Shown piece by piece: positions 1-57,470 of a stretch of 64,000 bases of DNA; the first letter of the stretch is position 1, and each line of letters begins with the position of its first letter. Source of the DNA: Camelus dromedarius (Eukaryota); contig NC_087436.1 in NCBI RefSeq assembly GCF_036321535.1, forward strand, positions 69,690,001-69,754,000, given 5' to 3'. The notes beneath the pieces are model-generated. The model saw only the letters and a list, made by a program, of their open reading frames with translations. It was not told the DNA's origin and did no database searches. The position numbers and the translations under genes were made by a program.

Positions 1-1524
1 TTTTTGCAAGTGTGTGCATTATTTCAAAGGTTTAAGTAACCTTTTTCAAAGTTACTTTATTCCCGTAACTAATTCATATCCATTACTCCTTGATTGCCCT
101 TCTCATCATTCAAAATAGGTTCCCGTTTCCTGCATAGTTAACACCATGTAACAGACTAGTTTATTTTAATAATTCATTTTATTTAACACATTTTTGTTTC
201 CTCTGTGATTTGGCTGAAAAAAGCTTTTACTATTTCAAACTTCTATGACTGAGTTCTTTGGGAAGTATTTTCTCAGAGTCCTTCAATTTATCTGTCTGTC
301 TGTCTATCTATCTATAGAATACTAGTTCCTGTGAATTTCTCTCAATCCTCTAAATAAAATTTCAAGTATAAACAATACTAATAGTTGCATTGTTTTTTTT
401 TTGTATTATAACATGACTGAACAATTGTTTAACTAGAAGGTGATGAGAAACTTCACCAAGAAATACATAATTTTCATGGTTTATCTAATGCCAGTCCTGA
501 ATTAAACCAATGAAGCAAAATCAGCAGATAAGGAGAGAGAGAAATACCACCAGTCCCCAGTTCCGATTCCTATGTTAGAGATGTAGTGCTTTTTAGCAGA
601 AGAATAGTTACTTCTATCATTTGGGAAAAGATGTTGCTGTGATGTTCTGTAAAACCTGATGACTAAAAATTATTTAGAAAGAGTTTTTACCCATTATTTA
701 CCTAATATTTTGGGAAGTATATTTATTTAGATATTTATAATTCAGAAGTAATCTGCTTTATTTCTTTTTCAACAACAACAGAACCAGGTTCACTGACAAA
801 TACAGAATTATAAAAACATATCAGAGTCCCAAATTAGCTTAATTTTGTTCATAAAATTATTTGAAGATTATTTCAATTCAATTTTCAAAATAACTACAAA
901 TATCTTTCCTGAAACCTCTTTTCAATTTGATTTTTCTCTACCTAGCATCCTTAATTTTGTAATGCCAGGGTTGCACCATCTATACAATTCTTAAGCCAGA
1001 AGCCTGGTTCATTTTCCTTATTCTAAAGCCAGTCTCTGTTGTTTGTCATTCTACCTTCTAAACATCTCTTAAGCTCTGCCTTAATCAGGATCCCTAATGT
1101 CATTTTGTAAGGCCCTTGTAATTTCACAGCAATCTAAGTGGTCATCCTGACCCCGGTTTTTGTCCTTCTTACAAAATAAACATTTTCACTTTCATGCTCC
1201 CTCATTTTCGTTTCTTTGCAGGAACTCTACATAACACAGGTCTTATCTTTTTATTCCCTTTAATACCTCCATTCTCTTAGTCTGTTTAAGAAGCCCATTT
1301 TCTGTGTGTTTATAGCACTTCAGTATTTCTGTATCACAACACTTACCTTTCCTTATCAAGGTTCCTAAGTTCCATGATGTCAGGTAATGTGTTTGAATTG
1401 TCTTTGAATTTCTAGTCAGTTTCCTAAGGCTTCAGAACACACTTAGATCAATAAAAGGTTTGTAAAGGCAGCAGTGAATGTACTATTGATTTCTCACATA
1501 TGCTTTCACAGGACTTTGCCAAAA

Positions 1525-1575
1525 ATGAAGATCCTCGTCTTTGCCTTTATTATGGCTCTCATGTTAGCCATGATT
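1525..1575 (+). CDS. HSTN: Gene 1 coding exon (signal peptide [17 protein letters not shown])
   Basis: Acceptor tttcacag at 1511, ATG at 1525, donor gtaagt at 1576. Confidence 0.92.
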
Positions 1576-3881
1576 GTAAGTATGTCAGGAAATTTTGAAG
1601 AATATGTTCTCAGAAATTAGCGTGAGTCTCTCCTCTTATTTCTTGTGTTTTGGCCTACATGTGCATTTACCTGAACATGGCTTTATAAATTTTAATATTT
1701 TTATATGAACATTTTCCTTGAATTAAGCTACATAAGTACATTAAGGACTTAGAATAAATCTTGAATACACACATACACAAACACACTAAGCATACAGACA
1801 CAGAAGTGTAATTAACTTAATGTAAAGATTAAAAATTTTAAATAGCCCCATGAAGACATGAATCTAAGAGGCTAATAGAGACATTTAAATCTTAAAACTC
1901 TAGATTTACCAAATGTCAGGGATTACCTGTATTGTCATTAACTACTCTGCGTCATTAGGTAAAACTGACCTTTCTGAATTGCTTTCTTCCTCCTCCCTCT
2001 AAATGTGTTTCCTCTTCTGTAAAAACAATGGTACTTTTCACTTCACTATTCTTTGTGTCTAGTTACTGAGATGTTCTTGGAGAAATAATAATATTTCTCC
2101 TAATCCAACAAGTTCTACTGGATGTCTCAAGACCAAGGTGGTCATGACATCACAGTCTAACAGATTATCTTTCATAAAATAACACAAATCTAAAAAAAGA
2201 GAAAAACATTATACCAGACCCTATTAGCACAATTAATATATGAATGTAAGTAGCTTTTAAGCTACTTGAACATTTCCATATAAAAAACATTTGACTTGAC
2301 AAATCCCAACTTTAACTTTTCAGTTTCATTGTCCTAGTCACAGTGATAGATTTGCCTTCCTTTCACACAAAAAAGAATTTGTTCCAAAGTGAATTGATAT
2401 TTGAATGTAGCAAATGAATTACGGTGAAATATTTCTCTTCATTCATATAAAAGATGCCATTCTACAAACACAAAATTAGTTTAGTGTATCATTTCCCCAG
2501 AACTTTACCTCCATTCCATTTCATCATAATTGTGGCAGCTAAATGCATTTTTACACTCAATCTAAAACTGTAAAATTAAAATGTTAACTATTTTCGTCTT
2601 TCCTTTTTTCCCAGAGCGCTGATTCATCTGAAGAGGTAAGACACTTTCCTTCACTGGAAAACGTGAAAAGTAAACATGTGTTAAAATGTTAATCTGTTCT
2701 TTACTTTAACAGAAACGTTTCTGGAAATGGAGAAAATACAATGTACGTATTCTCCTGATAATGTGGTATAGTACAAGAATATTTTCTTCTCTGATATTTA
2801 TATATTTACATATTTACATAATGACTGATTAAAGTACACATTGTCTTTTTGTTGATGATACACTGGGTAAAACCCAGTAGTCTGTGTACTAGTAGCATTT
2901 GGATGGAAACTCATAATGCCACCCTGATAAAGTCAATTATTTTTTCAAAAAAACAAGTATCTTTGTCTAGTAAATAATTACCTTGATCTAAAGAACACTG
3001 AGAGTCTAATTATGTTAAATACAAAATATGCCTAAAAGACCACAGAGACTTTCAAAATACGTATAATGTTGTCAGTTTCCACTTCCTGATTCTTTTGAAA
3101 GGCAATGCAGTCCTTAGTGTATGTTGAACTAACCACATTAAATAGGATAGAAAATTTAATTTATTTAACATTCCTCTTAGTGAAATGTTTCCGTGATAGT
3201 GCATGTTATTTTGACATGTCTATCGATGTGATAAGGTCTCAAAAATTCTTACTAATATAGTCAGTAGATGAATTCAAACAGCACCAGATAAAAGGATGCT
3301 GAAGGAGGGATGGAGGACATTTGGAATAACAAAAGTGAATATTTAAGAATGTAGGAGTTTTAAGAAACAGTATTTTATTTATAAGTAAAGAGTGAGAAGT
3401 AGTAATTCCACCTAACTTGGAATTAGTAAATATCTCTTCCCTGTAATATTCAAGGATGGGCAAAGAAGCTTGAAAGTTATATTATAAATAATAATTTAAC
3501 GTTTTATGAATGGTTGGCTATAATCAATGGCTCCATGTGTATTATAAAACAGCAAAATTTTCAACAAACAGCAAAAATATAAGTGCTTTATCATTTTACC
3601 ACTTTAAAACATTCTTATTTAAAATAATTAAAATCTACCTAAAAGCTTGAAAACACAATCATGTAGATGATATATAAGGTCCTACCAACGTTAACAACCT
3701 AAGTTTTTAATGAAATTTACTGAGAAATATTTGCACCATCATTGTCTCAATTCTCTGCAATTTCTTTTTTCCTTTCGTTTGTGTACAGTTTGGGTATTAC
3801 CAACCATACCAGCAATACGTGCCGTATCAGCGGTATCCACAAAACTATCCTAACTATCCTCTTCAATATCCATTTCCTTAA
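1525..3881 (+). CDS. HSTN: Histatherin/statherin-family secreted peptide, gene 1 (spliced CDS 1525-1575, 2615-2635, 2713-2742, 3789-3881; 64 aa)
   Basis: Four phase-0 exons with AG/GT boundaries give [64 protein letters not shown]. This is a signal peptide, a DSSEE motif, a basic segment and a Y/P/Q-rich tail, i.e. STATH/HTN architecture. The C-terminus YQRYP..NYP..YPFP resembles bovine histatherin as I recall it. The symbol is tentative (HSTN versus STATH). Confidence 0.85.
2615..2635 (+). CDS. HSTN: Gene 1 coding exon SADSSEE
   Basis: Polypyrimidine tract plus ccag acceptor, 21 nt, gtaag donor. S-x-E motifs at the exon end are typical of SCPP genes. Confidence 0.92.
2713..2742 (+). CDS. 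HSTN: Gene 1 coding exon [10 protein letters not shown]
   Basis: ttaacag acceptor, 30 nt, gtacgt donor, after a 77-nt intron. Confidence 0.88.
3789..3881 (+). CDS. HSTN: Gene 1 last coding exon (Y/P/Q-rich; exon continues as UTR to 3917)
   Basis: gtacag acceptor, TAA at 3879-3881, donor gag|gtaag at 3917/3918. Confidence 0.9.
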   Translation, partial: [30 protein letters not shown]

Positions 3882-4394
3882 AACGCTGCTCAGTAACCAC
3901 AGGACATGATTACAGAGGTAAGCCGGGTCTAGTGACATTTAATATTATTTAGAGGTATCAATGGTGACAGGTAAAACAAGAAAAAGCAAAAGCAAGCTGT
4001 CAAACCAAAAGCAGCCCCAGTTTAAGAAACCCATTCTGGTGTAGCTCTGGTAAAGTACACTTACCTCTCTAAGTGTGTCCAAAAGAGAGCATATGTCCTG
4101 GCATTGTTAAGAGGCTGGGCTCTGGGGACGGGGCAGTTGTGTCTGTGTCCTAGTCCTGACCATTCCTAGTTTCATCACCTAGAACTATTCCTGATCTTTT
4201 TCTAAACTTCAATTTTTCTCATGGACAAAATCAGTATTATAATTCATAACCACATCACAGAATCAGTGAGACTACTGAAGGGCGTATTACATAAAAGCTC
4301 TTAAAGAGAATTGTATATAATTGTGACTGCAGGCTGCCCTGCCACTTAATCTGTGCCTGGATGTTGCTTAAAACTTTTCCTTCTAAAGGTAATC

Positions 4395-4577
4395 TTGGGA
4401 GTGGATGCACAAGCACCATCTGGGAACTTGTCAGAATTTAGATTCTGAAGCCATACTCTGACCTATTGCACCAGAATCTGCAGGTTATTAAGATCTCTAT
4501 ATGATTAATAACACAAGAAATTTGAGAAACTTGGCTTTGAAGATTCTGATGAGCAATTAGAATAGGAACCACTGCTT
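4395..4577. mobile_element. MER5-like DNA transposon remnant (paralogous copy ~21805-21988)
   Basis: Motifs tgggaacttgtcagaa...agaatctgca...tttgagaa...gaaccactgc recalled from the MER5A consensus. Confidence 0.45.
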
Positions 4578-6550
4578 TAAAATAATACCTACAAGAAAAT
4601 AAGGAAATGTTACCAACTGGATTTTAGAAAGTCAATTTTGTGTAAAACAAAAATAAATGTTCCAAAATCTATGAAAGGTTAAATATTTCACTGCAAAATC
4701 AAGGAATATTTTTGGAGGCTGTCCCACAATTCGAAGTGGAAATAGTTCCCAAGGATTTCAATAAATTTTAAATGCACATACAGAATTAATTCAAATTGAA
4801 CTCCCTAATGCCATCAATGACAGGACAAAGACACTGTATTTGACTCCCTAGGCACTACGCAACAGCTGAAGATACTTGAAAAAGAAAGGATATATTAAAC
4901 GTATTATTTGGAAGATATATAAATGGATGAAATGTGTAGGCTATATTTAAGCAGAGGACAGGGGGACAGAAATAGGTTGGTGGTAGAAAGACTTAAAGAA
5001 ATATGAGAAGGAGACCCTAAGAAAAGGCAATCAGTGGATTTGGTGATGGATTGAATGAATGGCCAAATCAGGGAAGGAAGGAGAAAAAAACAAAGAAATA
5101 GATACACGTTTGTCAGGATTGGATAAGCAAATATAAGGACTAAGCAAATAAGTCTTTCAGAAAAGAGACATGGCTCTGCTGCCATCTGTCCATCTCTTTC
5201 TTTGTTGTTGTTATAGTTGTTTTATGGAATTTTGCATTATGAATATGTTTGATTGGCTGTGTTTATACAGAAGATGCTAAAGAAGATAATTTGGCTAAGC
5301 TCAATTGGAAAGAGGATACCATTCAAAGTGAAAGTCCAACTGGGCTAAAAATACAGACCTGAGCCCACTGCACCTCATGTGAGCAGTGACAAGTGGAGAA
5401 AAAAGATGATAGAAATCATTCTTTGAATTTTTCAATATTGATTCAAGATTTCTTAAGGTCCTGAAGTGCCAGGAAAAGTACTATCCTATCAGCACCACAC
5501 AGAATTAGATTGGTTACACATTTGAAGTGTTGGAAATAAAGGAGCTATTTTGAAGTAGAGAAAGAAACAATTGAAAATAAATACTGTTCCTTGTGTTATT
5601 TTTTTAGAAAATAAAATTCCAACAGAAGTTTGTATTCATTCAGTCATGAGATATTTCTTGACTACATCCTGAGCAGGCAGTGAATTAGCCACTGGGGGTA
5701 TAAATATCATGATTTATCTCTGCACTTGATGGCTTATTATCTAGTTTTCAAAATGGATGTAAAATCAAGCAATTATAAGTGAGACTATCATCTGATACAG
5801 GAGGGATGTGATTGAATGGGTTCTTTAGGCATCTATAGAGCAGGTGCATGGCAGGTAAAGGATAGACAGGCAGTAAAGTCCATTGGGAAACTATCAAAAT
5901 AATTTAACATGAAAAACAAGAGGTTGAACTAAGAAACAGTGGTAGTGATAACAGCAATTTAAAGTCTGGTTATATAACTATTTTAGAATAATTTTAGTAA
6001 AGCTTTTTTTTTATATGAAGGATTTTAAGCAGGCACAGCTTTGGTCAAGGGTCTTTTGTCATGTCCAAAAAGAACAGTTCTAAACTTAGACAAGGAGAGA
6101 TTTTATTCATAACAAAGATCATTGCAATAGGAAGAAAGTTCAAATCTCAGAAATCTGCAAGGGCTTCAAAGGCGAACAGAAAAAGTCTTTTTAAGATAGG
6201 TAAGCAAAGATTAGCAGAAACTTTTAGGGGAAGTTGGGCAAGCAGAAGGAAATGACCAGTAGAAAGGGTGTCCACTCTGGTCAGCTGATTCTCAGGATAA
6301 GCTGATAAGAGGGCACGTTCCACTTTTTTCCTGGTTGTCCAGGCTTGGGGCATGCAAAGGTCAAGGGCACCAAGGAAGGTGGGAAGGGAGGAGACAAGCA
6401 GGGGGTAACAAACGGGCAATTGTGAACACTTGGTTAGACAGAAAGAGTTATATCTGGATATAACTGAAAAATAAGAAGACATAATGACATTAGCAATGAT
6501 TCATTTATTGTTCAAATTTAATAAAATGTATGTTTTCTCCTTATCCACAG

Positions 6551-6825
6551 ACTTGGTGAGAAGTCCTATTTGCTTTGTACTCACAATGATTCTTCCTATT
6601 CTTCCTGCTGTGTCCAAATTCCAGCTTTCAAAACAAAGAAAGAAAAAAAAAGAAAAAGAAAATTCAATCAAGCAGTGTTACATAAAGAATACATACCTGA
6701 GATCAAATATCAATAATTTTAAAACAGTAGTAATGATAATCTGACCTTTCTTTTCTCTGTTAAAGTATTTTCAAAATTAAAAAAAAAAAAAGCCTTGCGT
6801 AATAAATCGATCTATCAAGCATGCA
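6551..6825 (+). other. HSTN: Gene 1 terminal 3'-UTR exon with poly(A) signal AATAAA at 6801-6806
   Basis: ttatccacag acceptor at 6550. Collinear with the paralogous segment 24001-24285, which has the same acceptor and AATAAA. The 3' end is approximate. Confidence 0.7.
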
Positions 6826-12800: not shown

Positions 12801-13810
12801 TTGGATGTGTAATGATAAATTTTTTTGTCTAATATATTAAGAAATGGAATGATAATTGCTATTTATTCAGATACTAATTTAATGAATATTTAATAGTCTA
12901 CTCAGACACTAAGTTACTTTAATAGTATAGTCAGTGATATATATGAATATTTATATATATATTTATATAAATTTAGCTATAAATAAGTAAAATAATCTGT
13001 AAACAGCTATTCTGTAACAGGCTAGAATGTATATGCTTTTACAGCAATGTACATTTTAGGCAATCTGTTATTTTCTTTCTCTGTATAGGTGTGACTGAAA
13101 AACCCAGTTTCAAACATGAAAAAGAAGAACAAAGAAGGAAAAGAAAGTCCAGTAATAATATCACCATAACATTTACACGTTGCATCCTTATGCCACAATT
13201 TAATGTCACATCTTTGACATAGCAGCAGCCTTTTATTGATTTTCCCTTGTAAATGAGAGACCTTGGCACTAATTCAAATACTCCTCTGAATCTCTGACTT
13301 TAAGTAACTGCTTGCTAAAATGTCAATTCTGGAATGTCCTACCAAAGATACTAAACTGTACAGGAAAAAAAGAGTTCCTTTTATATTTTCCAAGTGTAGA
13401 ATGTAATACTGCTTTCTAAATGTTTTTTTTTTTTCTTTCATTTGGCCATACACCTCTCACTCTTTCCTTTCAATAAACTGTCAAAAATAACATTAATTTT
13501 CTGACGCATCTAACTCATCTTATACATTAGTCAATTCCAGAAAACAGTCACCTATTTAGTAAAAAAACAAAGTGAGTCCATTTGACATCACTGCCTTCAT
13601 TTCCCCCCTCTCACTCTTTTGTATATTGATCTATGTCTGATCAGATTTCTAACTTTCTCCCACTAGTCTTAAAGTTTCAGGTGACTCTCATATTTGACAA
13701 AGTTGTTTTATCTCTGTACTTCAGTTTTCATTTCCTCATGCAGCCTTAGAAAAATATTTTAATTAAGATGTTCTTTCTAATGAGCATAATAATAAAATAA
13801 AATAATAATA

Positions 13811-14748: not shown

Positions 14749-17112
14749 AAGGTAAACCCCCTGAAGGGCAGGAATAGAAGATCGTCATTTTTGTATCCCA
14801 AATGACTTGGAGATATTTTGTTATCAGGTAGTCAGTCATAAGTTGTTCTTTATTGTCATTTGTGATTTTTTGTTTTTAGTAGTTCACACAGGAATATAAT
14901 GCAAAGTTTTTTATTTAATAAGAAAAGCATGAATTTTGTCATAGACTGAAGATCATGCTTTCATTGTAGGACAAATGAAGAAGGACAAGCAGGAGGAAGA
15001 GGAAGAAATGAAAGAGGAGAGGGACTGGGACTTTCCAGCAATAATATCACCATCAATACTCATTCACAGGTTGCCTTCTAATGCCACCAACTTAATGCCA
15101 CATCTGTGATACACAGTAGCTCTTTATTGATGCTTTTCTTCTAAATGAAAGACCTTGGCATTTTCAAACAGGATGGTGCTTGGTTTAGTATGAACAAGAC
15201 ATCTGTGTTCTTAATATAAAATATCAGGACATGTTCTGGTTCATCAGTCTTCCAAAATGACCCATTGTTCCTATAGGATGAAACCACAAGTAACACAAGA
15301 AGTCTACTCTTTGTTTAGAGTCCACTATTCCTGTTTCTTACTGTCATACGTAATCCCTCCACTTCCTACCGCTTGAAGCAGCAAATGATGGATGGAATAA
15401 TACCTGCATTTTGGTGCCCCAAACTAACATATTAGTGAGTTAAGTTTAATTGTAGGTTTTAAATATTAATGTTAACATCTATCAATTTTTATTACTTGGC
15501 AGATTGTGTTTGTTGCTCTTGTTGCTTGGTAGGGCCTCTGGAGCATTCGTTTTCTTCTTGCTCACTAGGCTGTGACTATCATAGGTCATCTAGAATAGTA
15601 GCTAGGGCCATTGCTTAAATGAATCAATAAGCACAAAAGTGAGTGAAGAAAATCAGTGAGAAAAGGCAGGAGAAATAAAGAATAGAGGAAAGAAGGAAGA
15701 AAATCATTTGTCATTTATGCAATGAATAAAGCAAGGCTCATTTTTAAAAAACAGACTAGTTTCAGGGCTTGCTGAAACCTATGTATCTTTTCTCCATTCA
15801 GAATATACTAGAAATTAGATTTGGTTTGCATTTCAGACAGTATATCTACAAGGCATAGAAATCATTAAAAAATAATTGAAATTGAATTTAACTTTCCTTT
15901 TTTTGCTTTAATAAATCATGTATGTTTTGTATACTATCCAGAGAACAAGAATAATTTGTAAGGAGGTTGTTCATATGCAACATAAAATATTCACCTAATA
16001 AATATGTCCTTAAAACACCTGATACAAAATTGTAAGTTCTAATTATAGGGTGATACCTATAAACAAGTAATACCTTTTTTGAGTATCTATGTGGCTTCTT
16101 AAACTTTATGTTGCTAAAAGAATCACCTGGAGATATTGTTACAATGAGATTCCTAGTGCATGTCCAGGAGTCTGATTCAATGTGTCTGGAAAGAAGGTTA
16201 ATGAATTTGCATTTCCAACAAGTTCTCAGGCGATGCTGATTCCGATGGTCTCATGTAACACATTTTGAGTAACGATGAATAAAGATGTATGATTTATTTA
16301 AATTTTACATGATTTGCTGATTTTTGGTTCTGAATACATTAAATTAGCCAATAAGTAGCAAAGAAATAAATTTTTTTGTAAATTTGTCTAGGGACTTTGT
16401 GAAACCAGTTTAGTTTCTTCTATCTCGTATAATTACATCAACTCATGACTTCCACTGAGAAACGTGTAAGACTCAAAGGAAGGAAATTAAATTCCAACTA
16501 TACGCATCTAGTCCCTATGTGAAATATATACTACTGAGATTTTATGGTTACTTAATTTAAGAATAAGAATTATTTTATCATGCAATACCCAAAAGATTAC
16601 CAAATTTTTCCAAGTGCTTGAATATACTTTAAGAAAATATCCTAAAGTCAATAGAACAAATGTAAAATGTAATAGTTTGTAGGAAACATATTTGAAATAA
16701 ATGATGACTCCAATTTAATTGACAGGTGTCACCATACTAGACAAAGGTAAAATTTTCATTGGATGATATATTTTTGGCATAGATTTGTTCCATTTTGAAC
16801 ATATATTTCTTGAACTAAAGTAAATGGTGTTCTCAAGAAACATTTCTGCCACTTCAATTCTAATGTGATTTACTCTACCATATTTGTCTTTGTCAAAATC
16901 ACGTTTCCTAGATTGACACTGGGATTAACATTTGACATTTCCGTGTGCTTTCTTATCACTCTACTTTACAATATTCTATTGTAAATCACTCTTAATTTCA
17001 CTTAATTAATTTCACTCTTAGTGTCTCTGGGGACAGGATTTGGGCATTATTTGCAGTTTTATATGATCTCATAATTAACATGATTGAGAAAGACAAGTGG
17101 AGGATTTCAGTG

Positions 17113-17120
17113 TATTTAAA
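17113..17120 (+). promoter_or_regulatory. TATA-like box (TATTTAAA) of gene 2
   Basis: Lies about 25-30 nt before the putative exon 1. The same TTTAAATA variant occurs in the CSN1S2 promoter. Confidence 0.6.
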
Positions 17121-17139
17121 TACTTCAGTCCTCTAGGGA

Positions 17140-17207
17140 AGCACATCCTCTCTTAGGACTTCAGAATTTCAGCTTCTCTGACGCGTGAGTCTCATCTTGG
17201 GTGAAAG
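17140..17207 (+). other. STATH: Gene 2 non-coding exon 1
   Basis: Ends ctcatcttgggtgaaag|gtatt, resembling the recalled histatin/statherin exon-1 end. The start is approximate. Confidence 0.6.
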
Positions 17208-17489
17208 GTATTATGCCTAATATGATGTCTTCTACTAATATTTTGCTTGGTAGAATAATCTGAAGAATATTTATTAGGTTCATATTATTTATTGATAATT
17301 GATAATTAGTAATAGAGAAATAATTTAAAGAAATGATCACCCCATGTCAAATCTGAAGGATACAGGATCTTAATGCCTCTGAATTGACAGTGATCATTGT
17401 ACAAAGTAACTGATGTGTAAAATGGAGGAGATATGTTCTGTTGGAAGGGTATGCTAGTAGCCTTTTTATTTTCTTAACATTTATTTCTC

Positions 17490-18000
17490 TGTTTCTGATT
17501 AGTATGAAGTGATAACTTCTTTGTAGTTGTGATTTGCATTTCTCTGGTAGTTGGCAATATTGAGCATCTTTTCATGTGCCCATTGGCCATTGGTACTTCT
17601 TCTTTGAAAAAATGTCTGTTTAGGTCTTCTGCCCATTTTTGATTGGGCTAATTTTTGTTGTTGTTGCTGCTGTTATTGAGTTGCATGAGCTCTTTGTATA
17701 TTCTGGAAATTAAGCCTTTGTCAGTTGAATCGTTTGCAAATATTTTCTTTGAGTCCAAGGGTTGTCTTTTCTTTTTGCTGTAGATTTCCTTTGTTGTGCA
17801 AAACCTTATTAGTTTAATTAAGTCCCATTTATTTATTTTTGCACTTATTTCTATCTATTGTCTTGGTAGACTTACTTGGGAAAATATTGCTACGATTTAT
17901 GACAGAGAATATTTTGCCTAGGTTCTATTCTAGGAGATTTAAGGTGTCCTATCTTATGTTTAAGTCTTTAAGCCACTTTCAGTTTATCTTTGTGTATGAT
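17490..18000 (-). mobile_element. LINE-1 ORF2 fragment, antisense, in intron 1 of gene 2
   Basis: gatttgcatttctctg...ttgagcatcttttcatgtgcc..ttggccatt...gtttaattaagtcccattt. Confidence 0.85.
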
Positions 18001-18879
18001 GTATTTGTGGAAATATTTTTATTTGGATGTTTATAATTCAGATGTAATCTGCTTTAAGTCTTTTTCAACAACAGGAGAACTGTGTTTACTTGCATGTATA
18101 GAATTATAAGTACAAATCAAAGAGTCCTACATTCAGTTAATTTCTTGAATAAGAATATTTGGAAGATTATATCATTTTACCAACTCAATTTCAAAACAAA
18201 AAACTACAAATATTTTTCCTGAAAATTATTTTCAACTTGATTTTTCTCTACCCACTATTATTAAATTTCTATTACCAGGTTACACCATCCACATAATTCT
18301 CAAGCCAGAAAACTAGCTCACCTTCACTAACTCTATTATAAACTCAGTCCTTGTCATTCTACCTTCTAAACATCTCTTTAAACTTTGCTTTAATTATGAT
18401 CACTAATGTCATTATTTCAAGCCTCTATGACTTCACGACAATCTAAGTAGTCAGTCTGTCTCCATTTTTGCCCTTCTTACAAGCTGAACTTTTTCACTTT
18501 CATGGTACCGCATTTTTTTGTTTGTTTGTTTGTTTACGAGCTCCCAACAACTCTTTACTTACCCTATATACTGTAATGCAAATTTTGCCTTTTTCTTTTT
18601 TTAACACCGCCATTCGCTTGGCCTGTTTCAGATGTCTGTTTTATTAATGTTTGTAGAAATGTGGTGTTTCGATATCACAACATTTGCCTTTACTTATCAA
18701 GGTCCCTACTAGTCTCTAATTTCCACTATTTCAGGCAGTGTGTTTCAATTGTCTTTGTATTTCTCATCTGTTTCACAAGGCTTCAGAACACAGTTCGATC
18801 AATAAATGTTTGGTTTGTAAAGGCAGCAGTGAATGTGCTACTGATTTTTCGCATATGCTTTCACAGGACTCTGCCCAAT

Positions 18880-18930
18880 ATGAAGATCCTTCTCTTTGCC
18901 TTTATTATGGCTCTCATGTTAGCCATGATT
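18880..18930 (+). CDS. STATH: Gene 2 coding exon (signal peptide)
   Basis: tttcacag acceptor at 18866, ATG at 18880, gtaagt donor. Confidence 0.9.
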
Positions 18931-20238
18931 GTAAGTATGTCGGGCAATTTTGAACAATATGCTATCAGTAATTGTCTAAAGTATCTCTCATATTTCTTGT
19001 CCTCTGGCCAAGATTTGCATTTATTTGAACATGCCTTGATAGATTTTAATGTTTTTATATGAACATTTTTCTTGCACTAAGCTACATAGGTCATTAATGA
19101 CTTAAAATGTATTTTGAGTATGTGCACCCACATGCACATACTCAAACACACCCTAAACATACTAAACGCGCTCAGACCTCATGAAGTGTAACTGGCATAA
19201 TGTAAAAATAAAATTCGTAAGAGCCCCATAAAGATGTGAGGCTGGGAGGCTGATAAAAGACACTTAAATACTAAAAGCTCTACACCTACCAGGTGTTCCA
19301 AGCTGGTCTTGTCATTTACTACTGTGTGTCATTAGGTAAAACTTGACTTCTCTGAATTGCTTCCCTCCTCCTTCCTTTCCTCCTCCTCCCTTTCTCCATA
19401 ACCTTGTTTCTTTTTCTGTTAAAATTAATGGTCCCTTTTACTTTGGTATTCTTTGTGCTTAGTAATAGAGAAATACTAGCGGATGTTTAAAAAACAACTT
19501 GGTTATGATATCACAATCCATCACATTATTTATCATGAAATGATAGAAATGGAAAAATACAAATTTAAAAAGAACAGAGAAAAATGTAATACCTGGCTCT
19601 ATCAGCTCAGTAAGATTTGAGTGTAAGTAACTTTGAGCTACTCAAACGTATCCTAATAAAATACATTTGTCCTAAGCAAATCCAAAGTTTACCTTTTTGT
19701 TTTCACTCTCCTACTCACAGAGATGGGTTTTCTTCCCTTTCACACACTAAAGAAATTTAAACCAGAGGAGATGTTTGAAAATAGCAAATTAATTACAATA
19801 AAAATCTATTATTCACTCATTTTAAAGATTTCATTAAACAATAAAAAAAAAAAAGCCTACTGTATCAGTTAACCTAAGACTTTACTTCCATTTTCTCTTG
19901 CTCACAATTGTGACAACTAAGAGGTTTTTTTACACTTAAACTTGAGTTATAAAATTAAGATGTTAACTATTTTCTTCTTTTCTTTTCCCAAGGGAGCTGA
20001 TACGTCTGAAGAGGTAAGACACATTCATTCACTGAAGAAGTTGAAAATTAAGCATGTATTAAAATTTTAATTTGTTCTTTATTTTAACAGGAACATTTTC
20101 ATAGGAGACGTTTCCTGGTGAGTATTTCTCTAATGATATGGAATAGTAACAACACATTTTCTTCTCCGAGTATTTATTCTCTGAGGTGGCCATACCTAAT
20201 TCTGAAATCTGTTTATATAATGAGTGACTAAAATATAC

Positions 20239-20269
<31 letters not shown>

Positions 20270-21351
20270 TAAAATACCCTGGGAAAAGCCCCCGTAGTGT
20301 TATATATTAGTAGCATTTAGGTAGAAACTCATAATGCCAACCTGAAGAGTCCAATTATTTTCTCAGATCTCAAGTACTTTTGTCTGGTAAATAATTGCCT
20401 TGGCCTAAAGAATGGTTGAAATTCTAATTCTTTTGGGCATGATATATACCTAATGGAACATAAAGGTTGCTAAAAACATTTCTGCTGTTATCAGTTTCCC
20501 ACTTATTCTTCTGAAGGGTGATGAAGTCATTAAGTTAAATTAGCGATGTTAAATAAGATAGGAAATTTAATTTATTTCACATTTTTCTTAATGAAATGTA
20601 TCCCTGATCTCTCACATTATTTTGACATGGCATATCCACGTTGTAAGTTCTCAAAAATTTACACTAGTATAGTAAGTAGATGAATTAAAATGGCATCAAA
20701 TATCACTTCTCGGCCATTTGGCTAAGATCAAGTGTAAAATGGCATCAAATAAAAAGATGCAGAAGGAAGGATGAAGGATACTTGAATTAACAGAAGTGAA
20801 TGTTAAAGAACGTACCAGTTTGGAGACAGTAAGCTTATTAGAATTCAAGAGTGAGAAGAACCAGTCCCACCTACCCCAGAACTAGTAAATTCCTCCTCCC
20901 TGGACTTCTCACTGTTGGGCAAAGCTTGGAGTTAATATTACAAAAAAATATTTAAAACTTTTTTCAGTGGCTGGCCGTAATCAATGCCCCCATATATATT
21001 ATGTAACAACAAAACTGTCAACAAACAGTAAAAATGTAAATGCTTTATTCTTTTACCTTTTTAAAGACATTTTTTCTTATAAAACAGTAGAAATCTAACT
21101 AAAAGTTTGAAAAAACAATCATGTAGATGATGTATAAAGTCCTACCAATAATGACAACCTAAGTTTTCAATGGGAATTATGGTGAAATATTTGCACTGGC
21201 ATTGTCTCAATTTCTCTGCAATGTTCTCTTTCCTTTTGTTTGAATACAGAGAGGGAGTCCCATACGTCAGGATCCAGACATTCAACAATATGAGCCAATA
21301 CCTATTTATCCACAACCTCAAGATCCATTTCCTTCTGGGGCTCATCAGTAA
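18880..21351 (+). CDS. STATH: Statherin-family secreted peptide, gene 2 (spliced CDS 18880-18930, 19993-20013, 20091-20117, 21250-21351; 66 aa)
   Basis: The exons give MKILLFAFIMALMLAMI-GADTSEE-EHFHRRRFL-RGSPIRQDPDIQQYEPIPIYPQPQDPFPSGAHQ*. All splice sites are canonical, the ORF is intact and the introns are collinear with gene 1. The symbol is tentative. Confidence 0.8.
19993..20013 (+). CDS. STATH: Gene 2 coding exon GADTSEE
   Basis: cccaag acceptor, 21 nt, gtaag donor. Confidence 0.88.
20091..20117 (+). CDS. STATH: Gene 2 coding exon EHFHRRRFL
   Basis: ttaacag acceptor, 27 nt, gtgagt donor. Confidence 0.85.
20239..20269. repeat. (ATTG)n microsatellite
   Basis: Directly visible. Confidence 0.9.
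20702..20735 (+). pseudogene. 3'-truncated U2 snRNA retropseudogene with 15-bp target-site duplication
   Basis: atcacttctcggccatttggctaagatcaagtgt matches the U2 5' end (ATCGCTTCTCGGCCTTTTGGCTAAGATCAAGTGT) with 2 mismatches. It is flanked by aaaatggcatcaaat at 20687-20701 and 20736-20750. Confidence 0.93.
21250..21351 (+). CDS. STATH: Gene 2 last coding exon (P/Q-rich; exon continues to 21368)
   Basis: aatacag acceptor, TAA at 21349-21351, donor cag|gtaag at 21368/21369. Confidence 0.85.
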   Translation, partial: RGSPIRQDPDIQQYEPIPIYPQPQDPFPSGAHQ

Positions 21352-36817: not shown

Positions 36818-36868
36818 ATGAAATTTTTCATTTTTACCTGCCTTTTGGCTGTTGTTCTTGCAAAGCAT
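36818..36868 (+). CDS. CSN1S2: CSN1S2 exon, signal peptide MKFFIFTCLLAVVLAKH
   Basis: Acceptor at 36805, ATG at 36818, gtaagt donor. Confidence 0.96.
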
Positions 36869-39800
36869 GTAAGTATAATAAGATATTTATAAGTACCTCC
36901 TGTTATTTAAATATTAGAAGAGTGAATCTTTTATGCAGACAATGGCAAGGGTAGGCAGCAGGGAAGAGAGACTAAGTGTGTGAACTTTTATAATCAAAGA
37001 TGGCACTGGCCCTGCCTTATATAAGATATCAAGGTGGATAAAAATACTTTTTATTAAGTGTTTTCCTTGTAGGGTTGGACAAACTTTAGTTATAGGTTAA
37101 ATGGCATACCCTTTCTTCTATATCTGTTTGAATGTACCTGGGAACTCTTTTCACCCCAAGAACAACTTCCTAAAAGTAAGAAATATATTAAGCATTAAGA
37201 AGGATTTATTTGAAGTACAGAATTATTTGCTTTTTAATATTATAAGCTTCTATACTATTCCAATAATAATGAAAATAATTCAACTAAACCCTACACATTC
37301 CCAGAAACAGAATTCTAAAAGCCCCGGCCACCAAAACAAAACAAAAACCACAAAAATGAAAACAAACACAAACAACAACAGCAAAAAAAAAAAAAAAAAA
37401 CTCAGTGAGACAGCTTGACATTTTAAACCTACCATAAAACTGAAGCTTATATTTGTTTTTGTTTCTTATATAGGAGATGGATCAGGGCTCCTCCAGTGAG
37501 GTAAGATACTTTAGTATAAATATAAAACCCTTTCACCTGGTAAAAACGTAATATTCCCTGAACTATCACTTTTATAATAGTTTTATCACCAGTAAGTCTA
37601 GAGGTACAGAGTCAGAGAAAATTGGAAGCACAATCATAAAAAATATATATATAGGGGTGAGTAAAGACCAAAAGCCTACACATTTAAATCACCAAGAGTA
37701 AATTTGTGCGTTTTTTTCTAGACATCTCTCATATTAATGGTATTAGTTCAGAAGTCATGATGAACATTTTGTGAGAGAGTGACAGCAATCAATTGTGTTT
37801 CTGCAATAAGGACTCATGCTGTTCCTTATTAGATGCTACTTTCCAAATGACTTCCTGGCCATGGGTGCCTAACAGAGGCCCACAGACAATTTCAGCGTCA
37901 CCTAAGCATTTTCTTGTTTTCCTATGATTATTTAATCTCTTTTAAAATGACAAAAGAAAAAAGATAATAATGAAAAAAAAAGAAAAAGAAAATTGGAAAT
38001 TGTACAGAAGAAATGGGATATTTTTCCTCTCTTCTCTGTCGATGACATTTGGGAAAGCTTTGATTCAGTTATTCATAGCCCAAAAGCACAGTGTGGAATG
38101 AGTTAGTTATATGAAATATAATAAGTTAATTTAATAAAGGAAATGAAACTTTGGTTAACTTGTTGTGTAATTCAAGTAAAGATGTAAGTTATTTACCCAA
38201 TGGATAATGGTTGTGGACTGATACTTTATTAATACAATTTAGGTAAATAAATAATATTGTCTTTCTTTTTCTAAGGAATCTATCAACGTCTCTCAGCAAG
38301 TAAGTCCTAAATTCTTAAATTAAATATATTTTAACTTCCTTTATTTAATCAAAATTATAAAATAAATTTATTTATTTTATAGAAATTTAAGCAGGTAAAG
38401 AAGGTGGCCATTCATCCCAGCAAGGTAAAGTTATTACTCTATTCATCTTGATTGATGACACATCTTTATCTATAAAACATGGGTCACTTTCTCATTCATT
38501 CCAAATGAGTATCATTTTTAACTATAATTGTGAAAATGGTGATGTTTTCATTGTTTTGACAAAATGCTACGGACTAACATGAAAGGAAAAGATTTGTGAG
38601 CCATTTTTGAGCCTCACTGTTAAAGCACATTATCTTTGAAATGGTTCATCACCTTTGCTTTTTTTCCGTAATTTTGTAATCTTTTTGTTCACAAAATAGT
38701 ATTTTATTTTCTATCACTTCATGCTCAAGAATATAATACTGCATTTCAGTAAATGCTGTATCCTTCTTGGTTTTGCTTTCTTTCAGGAGGACATCTGCTC
38801 CACATTTTGCGAGGTACATATTCATTTCATATCTGTAGTATAATGTGAAGTAAAATATTATAGTACTTTGAACAGAATTGAAATTAACCTGGATTTGGAA
38901 AGTACATTTCAAGTCAATCAGATTTGAAAACCAAAATTATCTTTAAAGAATGAGACCAAATTATATCTTCATCTCTTAATTCTATGAATAATTCAAATGA
39001 AGAAAATACATCTTTGCACGAAGCAGCTAATATATTTGATTCCCAGATTCTATGAGGAATGAAGAAATTTTCCTTTAGATTCATTCTCAGTCTCCAACTA
39101 AACATTTTCATTCTTAATGCTTCAAGCTTAACATTTTTTTCTTTTTTAAATTCTTTCCTATTGAAGTATTTTTCTTAAAATTGATTAACTTAAATCAATC
39201 TGTTTATCACAGAAACAATAGCTATTTACTTCCAAAAGATGTTAATTGGCCTAGTGAGGTATTTTTCTGAATACATAACAAAACAAAAAATGACCATTAA
39301 AATGGAAAAGAAAAGCTTATCTATGAATTGCCTAAATTTATCTTGTGTATTCGTTAATTCACTTGACAGCATTTATTCAACAAGAACTATGTCCCCGATA
39401 CTATCCTAGTCTCCAGGGACACAATACAAATATGATCGCCTCTGGGATGCAACAATAGATACAATAAATGACAGTGACTACCTCTGGTTGTACGTTTACC
39501 ACCAAAGCAGAAATGCTAATATAATTCATTACAAAACTCAGACAATGAAAATGAATCCATTCTAGCGCTTTTCTTTATGGGAGACGGAAATGTCCCTTTA
39601 TACTCGGGAGAAAACGTTCTAAGTAATGCTGTGGCAATAATAGATCTAATTCTTTTTCTTCTCTCTTTTAAGGAAGCTGTAAGGAACATAAAGGAAGTGG
39701 TGAGAAATTTTTATTTATTTTGAAGAATTTTTGATTCATATTACTGATACATATTCCTATAATACTATCGATGGCATATGAGGACATCTGTAAATTTCCT

Positions 39801-42324
39801 CTTTTCATAAACTGGAAAGAGATTTATAAGTTGCTCAAAAATGACCATGTTTCCTGCCCACTTTAGTAATATCCACCTAACTGGATATATAGTATGATCT
39901 ATAGTCTCCTAAGCCTGCTACATTTAATCATAGGATCATTTTTACTTCTTTCACTTGTTTTCCAAAGGTGATTAATAACAAACAGCCAAGAAACCTGGTT
40001 ACATTGCTTTTATGTCAATCTTTTTAACTTATCATGCTAGTGTGTGTAACCTGAGACATATTCCAAATAGCCACTAATATTCAAAGAATTATGCTGGCAT
40101 GTCTTCTGGTCACCAGATTTTGATTATATATATTATTATTTTTCAGGAAATATCCTAGCTCAGTAAGAGACTTTTTCCTTTAACATCAAATAGCAAGTTC
40201 ACCAAAAACTAGATTTTCAGCAAAGTGTGGATTAATTTGTTGTTGACATCGCAAATAGTGTGAGCACCGGAGAAATCATTTACCCAAACCTGATGTAGTT
40301 TTGGGGAGATTCAAAGTGACTCTCTATACCATGGTGTGCACTGGTGCTCCTGACAGCAATATCAGATATCTGCCTCCAGGGGAAAGTGCATTTTAAATCA
40401 AGCCAGTCAAATCAAGAGCCTACCAATTGCCTTCAACGTGGTTTCAGCCTGAAACACCTCAGTATTGCTCGGGGCAATGGTTCTCCATGTGCTATTTCTC
40501 AGCTAGCAGTATTAGCATCACCTGGGCATACTGATGCACTTTAAAATTTGAGACCGTCTTGTTTAAGGGAGGTGACTGAGGGAATGGATTAAAATGTATA
40601 GGTCACTGGAACAAGAAAGACATGCTGTGGTAGAAATAGCCAAGCAATAAGCACGGCAGGAAAAGGCGCCTGGGAAAGGATGGAGCACAGGCGAGGTCCA
40701 GAGCCTTGTGTCCTGAGGCACAGCCAGAAGCCTTCCTACTCAGTACCTAGGAAACCTGCTTTACTCTTTTATCTCCAACAGGGAGCCAATGGCCTCTTAC
40801 AAATAAGCACTGTGTCCTCTAGAACAGGTACACAGGATTTAGTGTGCCACATGTCTCATCAGGCCTACTGTGTAATTTTTTTTGTCACCTGCCTTCACTC
40901 CATAGGCATTTGATATTGTATGAATAATATAGAATTGATGAAAACTTCTAAATGAAACATATTTTCAGTCACACGTTATTGCTTTGGCACAAAGTGAGGG
41001 GTCTGAATATTTAATTTATTGAATTCCTAAAAAAATATATGATTTCTCAGTAGTTGTGGCTTGGGCCCTAAATATATTTAATTAATTGCCTCTTCTACTC
41101 TAGTACAACTCAAAAGCTAAGTGCATTCTTCTTTTCTTCCCCTAAGGAATCAGCTGAAGTCCCCACAGAGGTAAGTAATTTTCATTCAACTGAAATGAAA
41201 TTAATACCAACTAGCACTATTTTCTTTTTGTGTATTTTTATGGCAAGTGCTTTTGTTTTCTTAACAGAAAGATAAGCCCATTGTGGAAGATAAGCACTAC
41301 ACACAATTTCTCACACAAATTGTAATTTCAACTAAACCGTAATATCATTGCTGTTTTTTCTCCCAATGTTCACATAACTCATTCCACCCCAATGAGATAT
41401 TTACCCTCAATTTACAGTAAGTAGTATATTTTCTCTGTTTTTGTTACTTTGATTTCCAGCTATTAGCTTGTTAAACTTGTGGACTTACAGTTTAAGATAA
41501 GTAAGTGTTGGGCAATTAACCAAATGATTTTGAAGGAGTTACAAGCCTCAGAAAATTTGTTTCAAGTTTAAATGGTGTAAGTGTAGTTGAGGTATCACAT
41601 CTTTGTCCACTCAACGTCTTTTTGCCAATAGCATCATAGACATGTCTCAAAAGTAAAGGTTTCCAAGCTACACATAGGAGGTCATGTACCCCGTCCTCTG
41701 GACTAGAGAAGTTTGTTGGGTGCACAAGGATAGAGCACCTGCTTTACAGTCAGCAACTTGTATTCCAATCATAACTTCACAAACTATTTCTTAACCTTTC
41801 CAAGCTACAGTTTCCTCAACTAAAAATGAAGATAGTTATATTGACCCTGAGGAATTACATTAGATGATATGTACATAAATTATGTTAAAAAATGCTTGGA
41901 ACACAGTATAGGCACATCTAAAAAAAATAACAGTTATTATTACCATGTCCCTACACAGAGCAGACATTCCTTCTAAAAACTTTAGAATAGAAACTGCCTT
42001 TCTTTGAATACCTAAATATGGGACTCCCCACATAAAACCTCTGTTTTTAGGAAATTATGATTGCTTTAAAAGCCATTCTTATACTTTGTCAAAATAATTC
42101 CAGTAGCACTCTCCCTTTGTACCACCTTCAAGGTAACAGGTTACTCACAGAAAATTCTAAAGACCGATTGACATTCTACACACCCATATTTTCAAATCTC
42201 TATGAAATGAACATTCTTTTGAGTGAAGCTGGCACTGCAGTTTTATATTTAATCTCTAAAAAGATCTTTAGAGTCAGCTCAAAGGCTATGGAATTTACTA
42301 GAATATTTATTAAGCCTGATAGGT

Positions 42325-42368
<44 letters not shown>

Positions 42369-45300
42369 TAGCACACTGTCATATATTTTAACAGATATAA
42401 TCCTACATGGTAAATAATGCTCAGGGAGAATGCAATATGATATATTATGCATAAACAACATAATGACCAAGTTATGAATTCTAACACCTAGGATAAAGGG
42501 AGTTAAAGTTCAGTTCTGTCTGACTCCAAAGAGCAGACTTCTTACACACACCAGACAGAAATGACAGACATTTGCCTTTTAACTCAAGAAATGTTCCTTT
42601 CCCTTCTCATACCTACTTTTGTTTTTTTCACATAGATACTGTTCTGGAGGTCTTCATAATCAGACAATGTTGTTAATTTTGCTATGTATTAACAAAGGTA
42701 GAAACAGCTACAATAAATTTTATGTGACTGAACTATTCTTGTTAGGTAAATTTGCCACCATTTTTAAATTATCTAATTAAAGGTCTAAGTAATTTGGTTC
42801 TGACAAAATGTGCTTTTGAGCCATGGAGGAGGTTCAATATTGGAGTAAATTTTATAATTTTCTTTCTCTCTAGAACAAAATCAGTCAATTTTATCAGAAG
42901 TGGAAATTCCTCCAGTATCTCCAGGCTCTTCATCAAGGTCAGATTGTGATGAACCCATGGGATCAGGGCAAGACAAGGGCCTACCCCTTTATTCCCACTG
43001 TGGTGAGTGCTGGTTTTTTAGTTTGTCCTTTGCTATTTTTGTTTGTTTGTTTGTTTTTGGCGGGGGATGAGCTCAGGGTGAAGATATGAACAATATCTAG
43101 AGACAAAATGCCCCAACAAGGTTTTAACTTAGAAAGTAGAACAATTGGGAACAAAATCTCATAGTCCAGAAATTAAATCACAGACAATATAGTCTTAAAT
43201 ATAGTAACAAATAACAGTAGTAACCATAGTGACAAGGAATTAATTGAACATACCTGTCTTAAGCATTTGCCCCTATATCATTTCACTTGGTTCCTCAAAC
43301 AATTCTCTAAGTTGGGAGGGGACAGTAATCATTATCTTCATGTAACAAAAAGATCGTACTGTAAGAAAATATAAGGAAATGAAGTAACTTGCCCAAATTC
43401 CAAGTACTGTCTACCATAAAACAGTTTATCTTAAGGAATTTTTTCTCATATGAGGAATAAATAACAAAAGTTATCTTGGCCCTCTTTTTTTTTTTTTTTT
43501 TTTTTTTTGAATACAGAACACAGAGCAGCTCTCCATCAGTGAGGTAAGGCATTTTATTACAAAGGTAATACCCGGGAAACTACTAAGATACTAACATTTA
43601 TCAAACATGGTAATAGACGGTTTTTGATCTAGTTTTGTAAGCAATAAATCTTGACTTACAGAATACGGGGAAATTGGAACTTCAGACATCCAAGAAAAAT
43701 ATGGGGAAGGCAGAACAAAAATGTACACATCCAAGGATACAAAGATGGTTACCAGGGGTAGAGGGGGGTCAGAAGGGATAAATTGGAAATTTGAAAATTG
43801 CATCTCTTGGGGAGTGATGGAAATGTTAGCTATCTTGATTGTGGTGGTAGTTTCATTGTGTGTACATCTATCAAAATTCATCAAATTGTACATTTGAAAT
43901 ATGTGTAGTTTACTGTACAGGAACCATGCCACAATAAAGGTGTTAAAAAAAAAAAAGATTAGATTTGTGCTAGTAGACCTTATCAAAAAGTTAATACTAC
44001 TGCTTTTCCCAAAGTCACTATTACTATTGCTGTGGCACAGGAGGCTGAATAATGTAGAACTGAGGAAAACTTTGAAAGGAAACACATTTTCAGTCACATG
44101 TTACTGCTCTGACACAAAGTGAGGGCTCTGAATATTTATTTACTGAATTCCTAAAAAAATAGTAGTTCCTGGGCTCTAAATATATTGAATTAATTGCCCC
44201 TTCTACTCCAGTACAACTTTAAAGCTAAGTTAATTCTTCTTTTCTTCCCCTAAGGAATCAACTGAAGTTCCCACAGAGGTAAGTAATTTTCATTCAAATA
44301 AAATGAAATTAATATCACCCACAAGTCATGGTGTACATCTTAAGTTTTGTAAACATAGTGAGAGGAATCCAATGTACCATTCTGAAATAAGAACTCTAGT
44401 TCATCAAGATCCATACAAAGTGCTACAATCCAAGCGGTTCATATTTTATCAACAAGGTTAAAATGTATTATTTCAGTTTTTTTTACGGAATCTGCCAACT
44501 TCTCTCAGGAAGTCAAAATCACTTACATTAAATGTAGTTAAGAAATTACTTTTTATTTTGTTATGGTATACAATAACTATTATTTATTTTATATAAATGT
44601 AAGCAGGAGGGGATGTGGTTATGCACACCAATCAGATGAAATTTATTTATCTATTTATTGGTTCACTGATGAGATATGTCACTCATCATTCACTTAAGAA
44701 GTAGGTATTTAGCAAGTAATATGTCCCTTACATGGTTCTAGATCTTTGGGATACAACAGCAATCTACAAAAGCAATGAAAATAAATTTAATTATTCTTCT
44801 TTATAAAAGAGGGGTTTTATATATATATTCAAGAGGAAATTATGTATAAACAATACAGTGAGAATAAAATGTCTAACTCATTTCTTTAAGGAAAATTCAA
44901 AAAAGACTGTTGATATGGTAAGGTATTATTATTTCTATATAAAGATATATTTAAGTCATATTTTCAAAAACTAATATTAAAATATTACTAGCTAGGCTTA
45001 TCTGAAATCTTTCTTTTTTTTAATCAGATTTTTACTTTTTTGAGCTGGAAATTTTACTTCAATTCTTCTTTTTCATCTCTCATACTAATATTCTTTCTAA
45101 AAGAAAGACTTTTAATTCCATAAATATTAAGAATATACTAAGGATTCAATTACTCTGGTCCCCAAAGTTTGGTTATTTTGTTTGTTTCTAAAGGAATCTT
45201 CTAGTAGTTCATCTAGTGAGAAAAATGATGATTTTAAAATAAAACAACCAACTAGTTTATTGAGAAATACTGCACTTTCCTGTTGTTAATTATTTTAAGT

Positions 45301-57422: not shown

Positions 57423-57470
57423 ATGAAGCTTCTACTTTGGGCCTGCATCGTGTCCGTTGCTTTTGCAAGG
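57423..57470 (+). CDS. PRR27: PRR27 signal-peptide exon
   Basis: Acceptor at 57411, ATG at 57423, gtgagt donor. Confidence 0.93.

Follow-up and report, generated by a model that had tools for sequence, protein, structure and literature searches.

Introduction

Genes of the SCPP class are defined by coding introns in phase 0, a signal peptide encoded in exon 2, and an S-x-E site at the end of exon 3. In human statherin, the product of STATH, the mineral function is carried by the phosphorylated N-terminal 15-mer (PMC8541499). Fam20C phosphorylates S-x-E sites, and in human statherin Ser2 and Ser3 carry phosphate (PMC10454625). Fast change has been reported for the primate STATH and HTN genes in PMC12457735, whose supplement also records the gene order in other mammals: in cattle, histatherin (HSTN, spanning 12.6 kb) is followed by STATH (9.4 kb) in this part of the casein cluster; pig has one annotated STATH; and the alpaca order is CSN2, STATH, CSN1S2, PRR27. 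In that supplement alpaca STATH stands without a RefSeq entry, and two Ensembl alpaca proteins are assigned to the STATH/HTN orthogroup. Bovine HSTN is expressed in the lactating mammary gland (PMC4219721). A comparison of camelid casein clusters (PMC6726744) reported no known gene between CSN2 and CSN1S2.

We analyzed a stretch of 64,000 nucleotides from Camelus dromedarius (contig NC_087436.1, positions 69,690,001 to 69,754,000 of the forward strand), referred to below as the window. It holds two related genes, here called gene A and paralog B. We consider it rather probable, though well short of settled, that gene A is the HSTN ortholog, that it stems from an old tandem pair of STATH/HTN-family SCPP genes between CSN2 and CSN1S2, and that it encodes a statherin-like secreted peptide.

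Genomic context and structure of gene A

The order of genes on the + strand is gene A (1525), paralog B (18880), CSN1S2 (36818), and a PRR27-like exon, which agrees with the cattle and alpaca orders given above. The features used in this analysis, all on the + strand, are listed below.

1512-1575, +, gene A exon 2: 13 nt of 5' UTR and 17 signal-peptide codons, with the ATG at 1525
2615-2635, +, gene A exon 3 (21 nt): end of the signal peptide and the DSSEE head, with two S-x-E sites
2636-2712, +, gene A intron 3 (77 nt): same length in the paralog, 65/77 nt identical
2713-2742, +, gene A exon 4 (30 nt): ten-residue core of charge +5 with four aromatic residues
3789-3917, +, gene A exon 5: 30-residue Tyr/Pro/Gln tail, stop codon at 3879-3881, and start of the 3' UTR
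6551-6806, +, probable non-coding last exon of gene A: polyadenylation-type hexamers at 6776 and 6801, limits inferred, inside the A/B homology
17113-17207, +, what we take to be the TATA-like box and exon-1-like stretch of paralog B, from a comparison of 1-705 with 16900-18001
18880-21351, +, paralog B coding span: signal exon 18880-18930, exon 3 19993-20013, exon 4 20091-20117 (27 nt), exon 5 from 21250
36818-47372, +, exons of CSN1S2 (alpha-s2-casein), the synteny anchor
57423-57470, +, signal-peptide exon, presumably PRR27-like

Exon 13 of camel CSN1S2, as given in PMC6437144, matches 44891-44917 with 0 mismatches, which identifies the sequence as Camelus. CSN2 lies outside the window; the distance of 48 kb between CSN2 and CSN1S2 (PMC6726744) places it on the far side of gene A, which sits between the two casein genes. 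Within CSN1S2 itself we also observed an internal duplication (42847-43011 versus 47221-47381, 68%) and, in the exon at 47244, two alternative donors 30 nt apart that correspond to the known exon 16 extension.

Gene A comprises four coding exons, all with GT-AG boundaries and phase 0, and its 64-residue reading frame runs without stop or frameshift. By analogy with statherin, we infer signal cleavage after residue 19, so that the predicted mature peptide is 45 residues long and begins at 2621. It contains two Trp, 10 Tyr, seven Pro, six Gln, and three Arg; F, W, and Y together account for 15/45 residues, and Y, P, and Q make up 73% of the 30-residue tail. The first-pass annotation had been drawn from 2615 to 3881, so that it opens with exon 3, closes with the stop codon, and has the signal-peptide exon outside its limits. 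Its claim of a His-free mature peptide with a Trp/Arg/Lys core is borne out by the count (0/45 His, two Trp) and by the intact exons.

Three observations argue that exon 4 is not a chance reading of the sequence. The exon layout recurs in the paralog; the splice sites rank high in the window (the donor, scored on an approximate matrix, at the 94th percentile among + strand GT sites, the acceptor pyrimidine tract at the 94th percentile among AG sites); and ten-residue segments with at least two W, at least five K/R, and at least four aromatics, a composition criterion set post hoc, number only 2 among the 65,821 that are stop-free in six frames, both of them at exon 4.

Such an exon could still contribute little to the product. 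If gene A were silent, or exon 4 mostly skipped, the Trp-rich core would seldom be made and its content would reflect relaxed constraint. Human statherin SV2 skips a 30-nt exon and loses residues 6-15 (PMC10454625), and skipping of exon 4 in gene A would likewise keep the frame, which together make partial skipping possible in camel. The exon 4 donor is also the weakest of the four scored in gene A (75.9, versus 79.4, 91.4, and 91.3) and scores below that of paralog B (89.4), on an approximate matrix. Furthermore, no TATA-like box or exon 1 for gene A was found in window positions 1-705. The A/B homology begins only at 706/18002, and gene A would have either a longer first intron or a different promoter, one that lies beyond the window edge or is unlike that of B; bovine HSTN, too, covers more DNA than STATH. 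The wider reading of a silent or skipped core is nonetheless very improbable in our judgment. The frame of gene A is intact, conservation of its signal and head exons surpasses that of the introns (pN 0.06, p=7e-4), the splice sites and intron 3 have been kept between paralogs about 0.31 substitutions per site apart, and the divergence of exons 4 and 5 exceeds the intron level, beyond what relaxation alone would give. Contigs of runs X1, X2, X13, and X14 over 1400-6750 contain two joints, none at an exon boundary; they read through the introns and are uninformative on splicing and expression.

A profile search returned three candidates, namely P0002 and two felid gene models, P0003 and P0004. 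P0002 (34 aa) corresponds to the signal exon plus exons 3 and 4 of gene A, with 33/34 residues identical; it is present letter for letter in Atlas, where a search gave no look-alike. We considered P0002 as cDNA evidence and set it aside: it ends exactly at the end of exon 4, and alpaca has two STATH/HTN orthogroup models, which makes a gene model the more likely explanation. Pfam assigned 0 families to 6/6 queries, which were partial and included the felid homologs. Homology searches with exon 5 gave no match, a PDB search gave one chance match (E=0.79), and a metagenome scan with the exon 3 motif gave matches that were by chance in 3/3 cases and without similarity to the window.

Paralog B lies 17 kb downstream and shares 71% identity with gene A over 6.6 kb. 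It too is intact, with a 66-residue precursor, and is the positional counterpart of bovine STATH. Its mature part is acidic (-3) and contains three His, its exon 4 has no Trp, its C-terminus extends beyond the position of the gene A stop, and it retains one S-x-E site only, the first Ser being replaced by Thr. Intron 4 of paralog B carries a 5' fragment of U2 snRNA (20702-20737; Rfam U2 E=2.7e-6, under the gathering score), which is flanked by two copies of a short direct repeat and is absent from gene A. Between the two genes lies a pair of diverged direct repeats (13148-13278 and 15034-15168, 78% over 138 nt) that may derive from a former exon or from an ancient repeat.

Relationship to histatherin

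The layout of gene A is that of the STATH/HTN family: phase 0 introns, an exon 2 that encodes the signal peptide, an S-x-E site that closes exon 3, a 30-nt exon for mature residues 6-15, and then a Tyr/Pro/Gln-rich exon. The multiple His residues of histatin-like metal-binding peptides are absent (0/45).

For comparison with cattle we used the bovine histatherin sequence (C6KGD8) in the supplement of PMC7070694, where the ten-residue segment KRHRKRKKHH, cited in the first-pass annotation, is indeed found. Aligned by eye, about 41/58 residues are identical between gene A and bovine histatherin: 19/24 in the signal peptide and head, 4/10 in exon 4, and 18/24 in the tail, where camel has two 3-residue Tyr/Pro-containing insertions. 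The corresponding by-eye values for paralog B are about 11/24 in the tail and about 1/9 in exon 4, so that gene A is the closer of the two to bovine HSTN. Gene A is also the first, CSN2-proximal member of its pair, as HSTN is in cattle. From this match in position and sequence, gene A is probably the camel HSTN ortholog, as had been proposed, on a basis of location and by-eye comparison with one bovine protein, histatherin. It is thinly annotated. The two camel genes are nevertheless not wholly unrecorded, given the alpaca STATH, the two Ensembl alpaca proteins, and the public protein P0002.

Age of the pair and divergence of its mature exons

The two genes have diverged very unevenly along their length. 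The signal peptide plus exon 3 is identical at 66/72 nt, and the signal exons alone at 49/51 nt (1525-1575 versus 18880-18930), compared with 75% in the introns; this identity reflects strong constraint or gene conversion. In the mature exons, by contrast, divergence outpaces that of the introns: identity is 59/114 nt across exons 4 and 5, versus 996/1,306 in the flanking introns (Fisher p=7e-8), and 14/27 nt in exon 4 alone (p=0.006). For exons 4 and 5 together, pN is 0.53, pS 0.36-0.38, and intron p 0.25. The excess of pN over intron p is significant (p=2e-8), that of pN over pS (46/86 versus 9/25) is not (p=0.17); the exon 5 alignment is of low complexity, and the pN excess covers both branches and is not placed on gene A.

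Over 4,869 columns, the introns of A and B are separated by a K2P distance of 0.31. The neutral branch length of the camelid lineage since the artiodactyl root is roughly 0.09. Set against this approximate branch length, the intron distance would make the duplication look older than the camel-ruminant split. The two megabat members of the STATH/HTN orthogroup (supplement of PMC12457735) and the two unlike felid homologs point to an early duplication as well. The authors of PMC12457735 favor instead a duplication within Artiodactyla, and call orthology in the subfamily hard to resolve.

Within camelids, contigs of runs X1 and X2 (about 0.4% from the window) cover exons 3-5 and show no other letter at coding positions, and exon 4 of P0002 is that of gene A. 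This conservation was considered as evidence of selection and rejected, since no change is expected by chance (probabilities 0.92 and 0.58).

Variation of the exon 4 core among mammals

In the ten residues directly after the head, cattle have KRHRKRKKHH, P0003 has KHHWHKKHRH, and P0004 has KLGWYPPWFR; the camel segment carries Trp at its fourth and sixth positions. P0003 (Prionailurus iriomotensis) and P0004 (Lynx pardinus) are gene predictions, and their exon limits were inferred from position. Both resemble the camel protein in a near-identical signal peptide, in DSSEEK, and in Trp at position 4; P0004 is, in addition, His-free, with two Trp in the segment and four in the mature part. They also differ from camel, in that the P0003 segment contains five His, whereas that of P0004 has a charge of only +2 and includes two Pro. 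Felids appear to have both His-rich and His-free, Trp/Pro-rich statherin-family peptides, both annotated only as hypothetical.

These comparisons divide the earlier proposal that His was exchanged for Trp in exon 4. That His was lost in the camel lineage is plausible, since cattle and P0003 have His 3 and His 10 in common; in camel, Phe, Tyr, and Asn take the places of bovine His 3, 9, and 10, and the Tyr and Asn codons each lie one nucleotide from His. The Trp residues, however, face Arg and not His. Cattle have Arg at both sites where camel has Trp 4 and Trp 6. A single substitution separates TGG from an Arg codon and three separate it from a His codon; aligned at the DNA level, the second camel Trp codon pairs with an Arg codon of the paralog. 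The presence of Trp at position 4 in both felid proteins suggests that this residue is old and was probably lost in cattle. We therefore do not regard the change as special to camelids: Trp 4 occurs in 2/2 felid homologs, the lynx protein is His-free with four Trp, and human statherin is His-free (PMC8541499, Table 1).

Together, the His-free, Trp-rich lynx core, the His-free human statherin, and the Arg-facing position of Trp indicate that the camel core is one state of a variable exon. In camel, the probable changes in exon 4 are a loss of His and the replacement of one Arg by Trp. Across mammals, the exon would act as a variable cassette that is His-rich, Arg-rich, or Trp-rich depending on the species.

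Proposed function of the peptide

After removal of the signal peptide, gene A would yield a secreted, disordered 45-residue peptide built like statherin. Ser2 and Ser3 both lie in Fam20C-type S-x-E sites, in agreement with the phosphorylated SSEE head put forward in the first-pass annotation, and Fam20C would be expected to phosphorylate both. The resulting acidic head could bind calcium phosphate, as enamel pellicle in saliva and possibly as casein micelles in milk. The basic-aromatic segment from exon 4 would complete the surface-binding N-terminal 15-mer and meet microbes, and the Tyr/Pro/Gln tail may bind proteins and polyphenols. A secondary, antimicrobial role is plausible, on condition that the acidic head is first removed or held on mineral. 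Without phosphate the peptide carries a charge of +3, two phosphoserines bring it to -1, and the charge of the N-terminal 15-mer is -2; since the whole peptide is near-neutral (-1), killing would need proteolytic release.

Could antimicrobial action instead be the main task, with exon 4 an HHC36-like, membrane-active Trp/Lys/Arg motif that a phospho-head keeps on enamel or casein micelles until proteolysis frees it? KRWWKWWRR, cited earlier as an antimicrobial, is named HHC36 in PMC8406695, and the camel core does resemble it: by eye, it agrees with both HHC36 and HHC-10 at 5/9 positions in register. The core also has a charge of +5, four aromatics, and a favorable interface score of -0.76. 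In PMC10074679, bovine HSTN figures as an antimicrobial protein of 6 kDa that showed enrichment in one quarter infected with S. aureus. The fast divergence of exons 4 and 5 fits host defence, and cleavage of histatin 3 is the source of histatin 5. The core contains KR and RK dibasic pairs, and we conjecture that a cut behind the KR pair would release a cationic fragment.

Several features nevertheless lead us to rate this main-task reading as unlikely. One is the charge given above, +3 before phosphorylation and -1 after it, with -2 in the 15-mer. Trp/Arg-rich antimicrobial peptides carry a charge of +2 or more and several Trp in their active form; the isolated ten-residue core, with +5 and two Trp, fits this description, and the whole doubly phosphorylated peptide, with -1, does not. 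The core is no more amphipathic than chance would give, its helical moment ranking at the 35th percentile among 20,000 shuffles. By eye, there is no R-x-x-R convertase site such as those of statherin and histatin 3, trypsin-like cuts would fall within the core, and the core has two Trp, compared with four in HHC36. The unchanged exon 4 among camelids is of little weight (no-change probability 0.58 to 0.92). The likeness of the core to HHC36 and HHC-10 is convergent. That a released core is antimicrobial in vivo seems doubtful to us, and we are about as skeptical of the fuller account, in which histatherin did not arise in cattle or ruminants, the HSTN/STATH pair predates the camel-ruminant split and perhaps even the laurasiatherian radiation, the cassette is under diversifying selection, and the camelid core is an HHC36-like antimicrobial, anchored to enamel or casein micelles by the head and activated by cleavage behind the KR pair, so that camel saliva or milk would contain a so far unrecognized defence peptide.

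Diet offers another explanation of the composition. Statherin, histatins, and proline-rich proteins bind tannins, and camels browse tannin-rich plants. The enrichment in aromatics (15/45 F/W/Y) might accordingly serve tannin or polyphenol binding in the saliva of a browser, with the Trp/Arg core as part of it; the 10 Tyr, seven Pro, two Trp, and three Arg residues, together with the two Tyr/Pro-containing insertions of three residues that by eye set it apart from bovine HSTN, are in keeping with such a role. Trp-containing cores occur, however, in two obligate carnivores as well (P0003 and P0004), and a search of the literature on statherin, tannin, herbivores, and saliva gave none on camelids by title. 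We assign this explanation a very small chance.

The probable camel HSTN ortholog with its unusual core is a real, intact gene of a known family, and its product is most likely statherin-like in function, with a possible antimicrobial side role.

Significance

Two intact STATH-family genes lie between CSN2 and CSN1S2, where a survey of camelids had reported none. The intron distance of 0.31 suggests that the pair is older than the ruminants, which bears on the view of HSTN as a cattle novelty. Gene A also provides a cheap test of how a single 30-nt exon can change the chemistry of a mucosal peptide among His, Arg, and Trp. Should the released core turn out to kill microbes, it would count as a natural counterpart of designed peptides and might contribute to the defence functions of camel milk or saliva; if it does not, gene A encodes one more fast-evolving statherin-type peptide. 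In open-licence PMC and bioRxiv, three pieces of the camel core, two tail motifs, and the bovine motif were not found, and the histatherin or statherin literature there included, by title and among the matches listed, none on a camelid gene.

Comparison with known systems

The designed peptides HHC36 and HHC-10 share 5/9 residues in register with the camel core by eye. They differ from it in being free peptides with four Trp, whereas the camel motif has two and stands beside a strongly acidic head. Primate histatins (HTN1, HTN3, histatin 5) belong to the same gene family and cluster and are, like the camel product, small secreted cationic peptides. They differ in having many His and metal-binding motifs, and the activity of histatin 5 depends on convertase cleavage.

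Human statherin is closer in design. It is 43 residues long, compared with 45 for the camel mature peptide, and shares with it the absence of His, S-x-E at Ser2 and Ser3, a 30-nt exon encoding basic and hydrophobic residues 6-15, and a Tyr/Pro/Gln tail. Unlike the camel peptide, it has no Trp, its charge is 0 (-4 when phosphorylated) as opposed to +3 (-1), it possesses an R-x-x-R convertase site that camel does not have, and its tail is less alike. Bovine histatherin (HSTN, C6KGD8 / NP_001156886.1, 58 aa) has the DSSEE head, a ten-residue basic segment starting with KR, and the YPFP tail end in common with camel. The two part in the segment itself, which has three His in cattle and none in camel and two Arg where camel has two Trp, and in the tail, which is six residues longer in camel.
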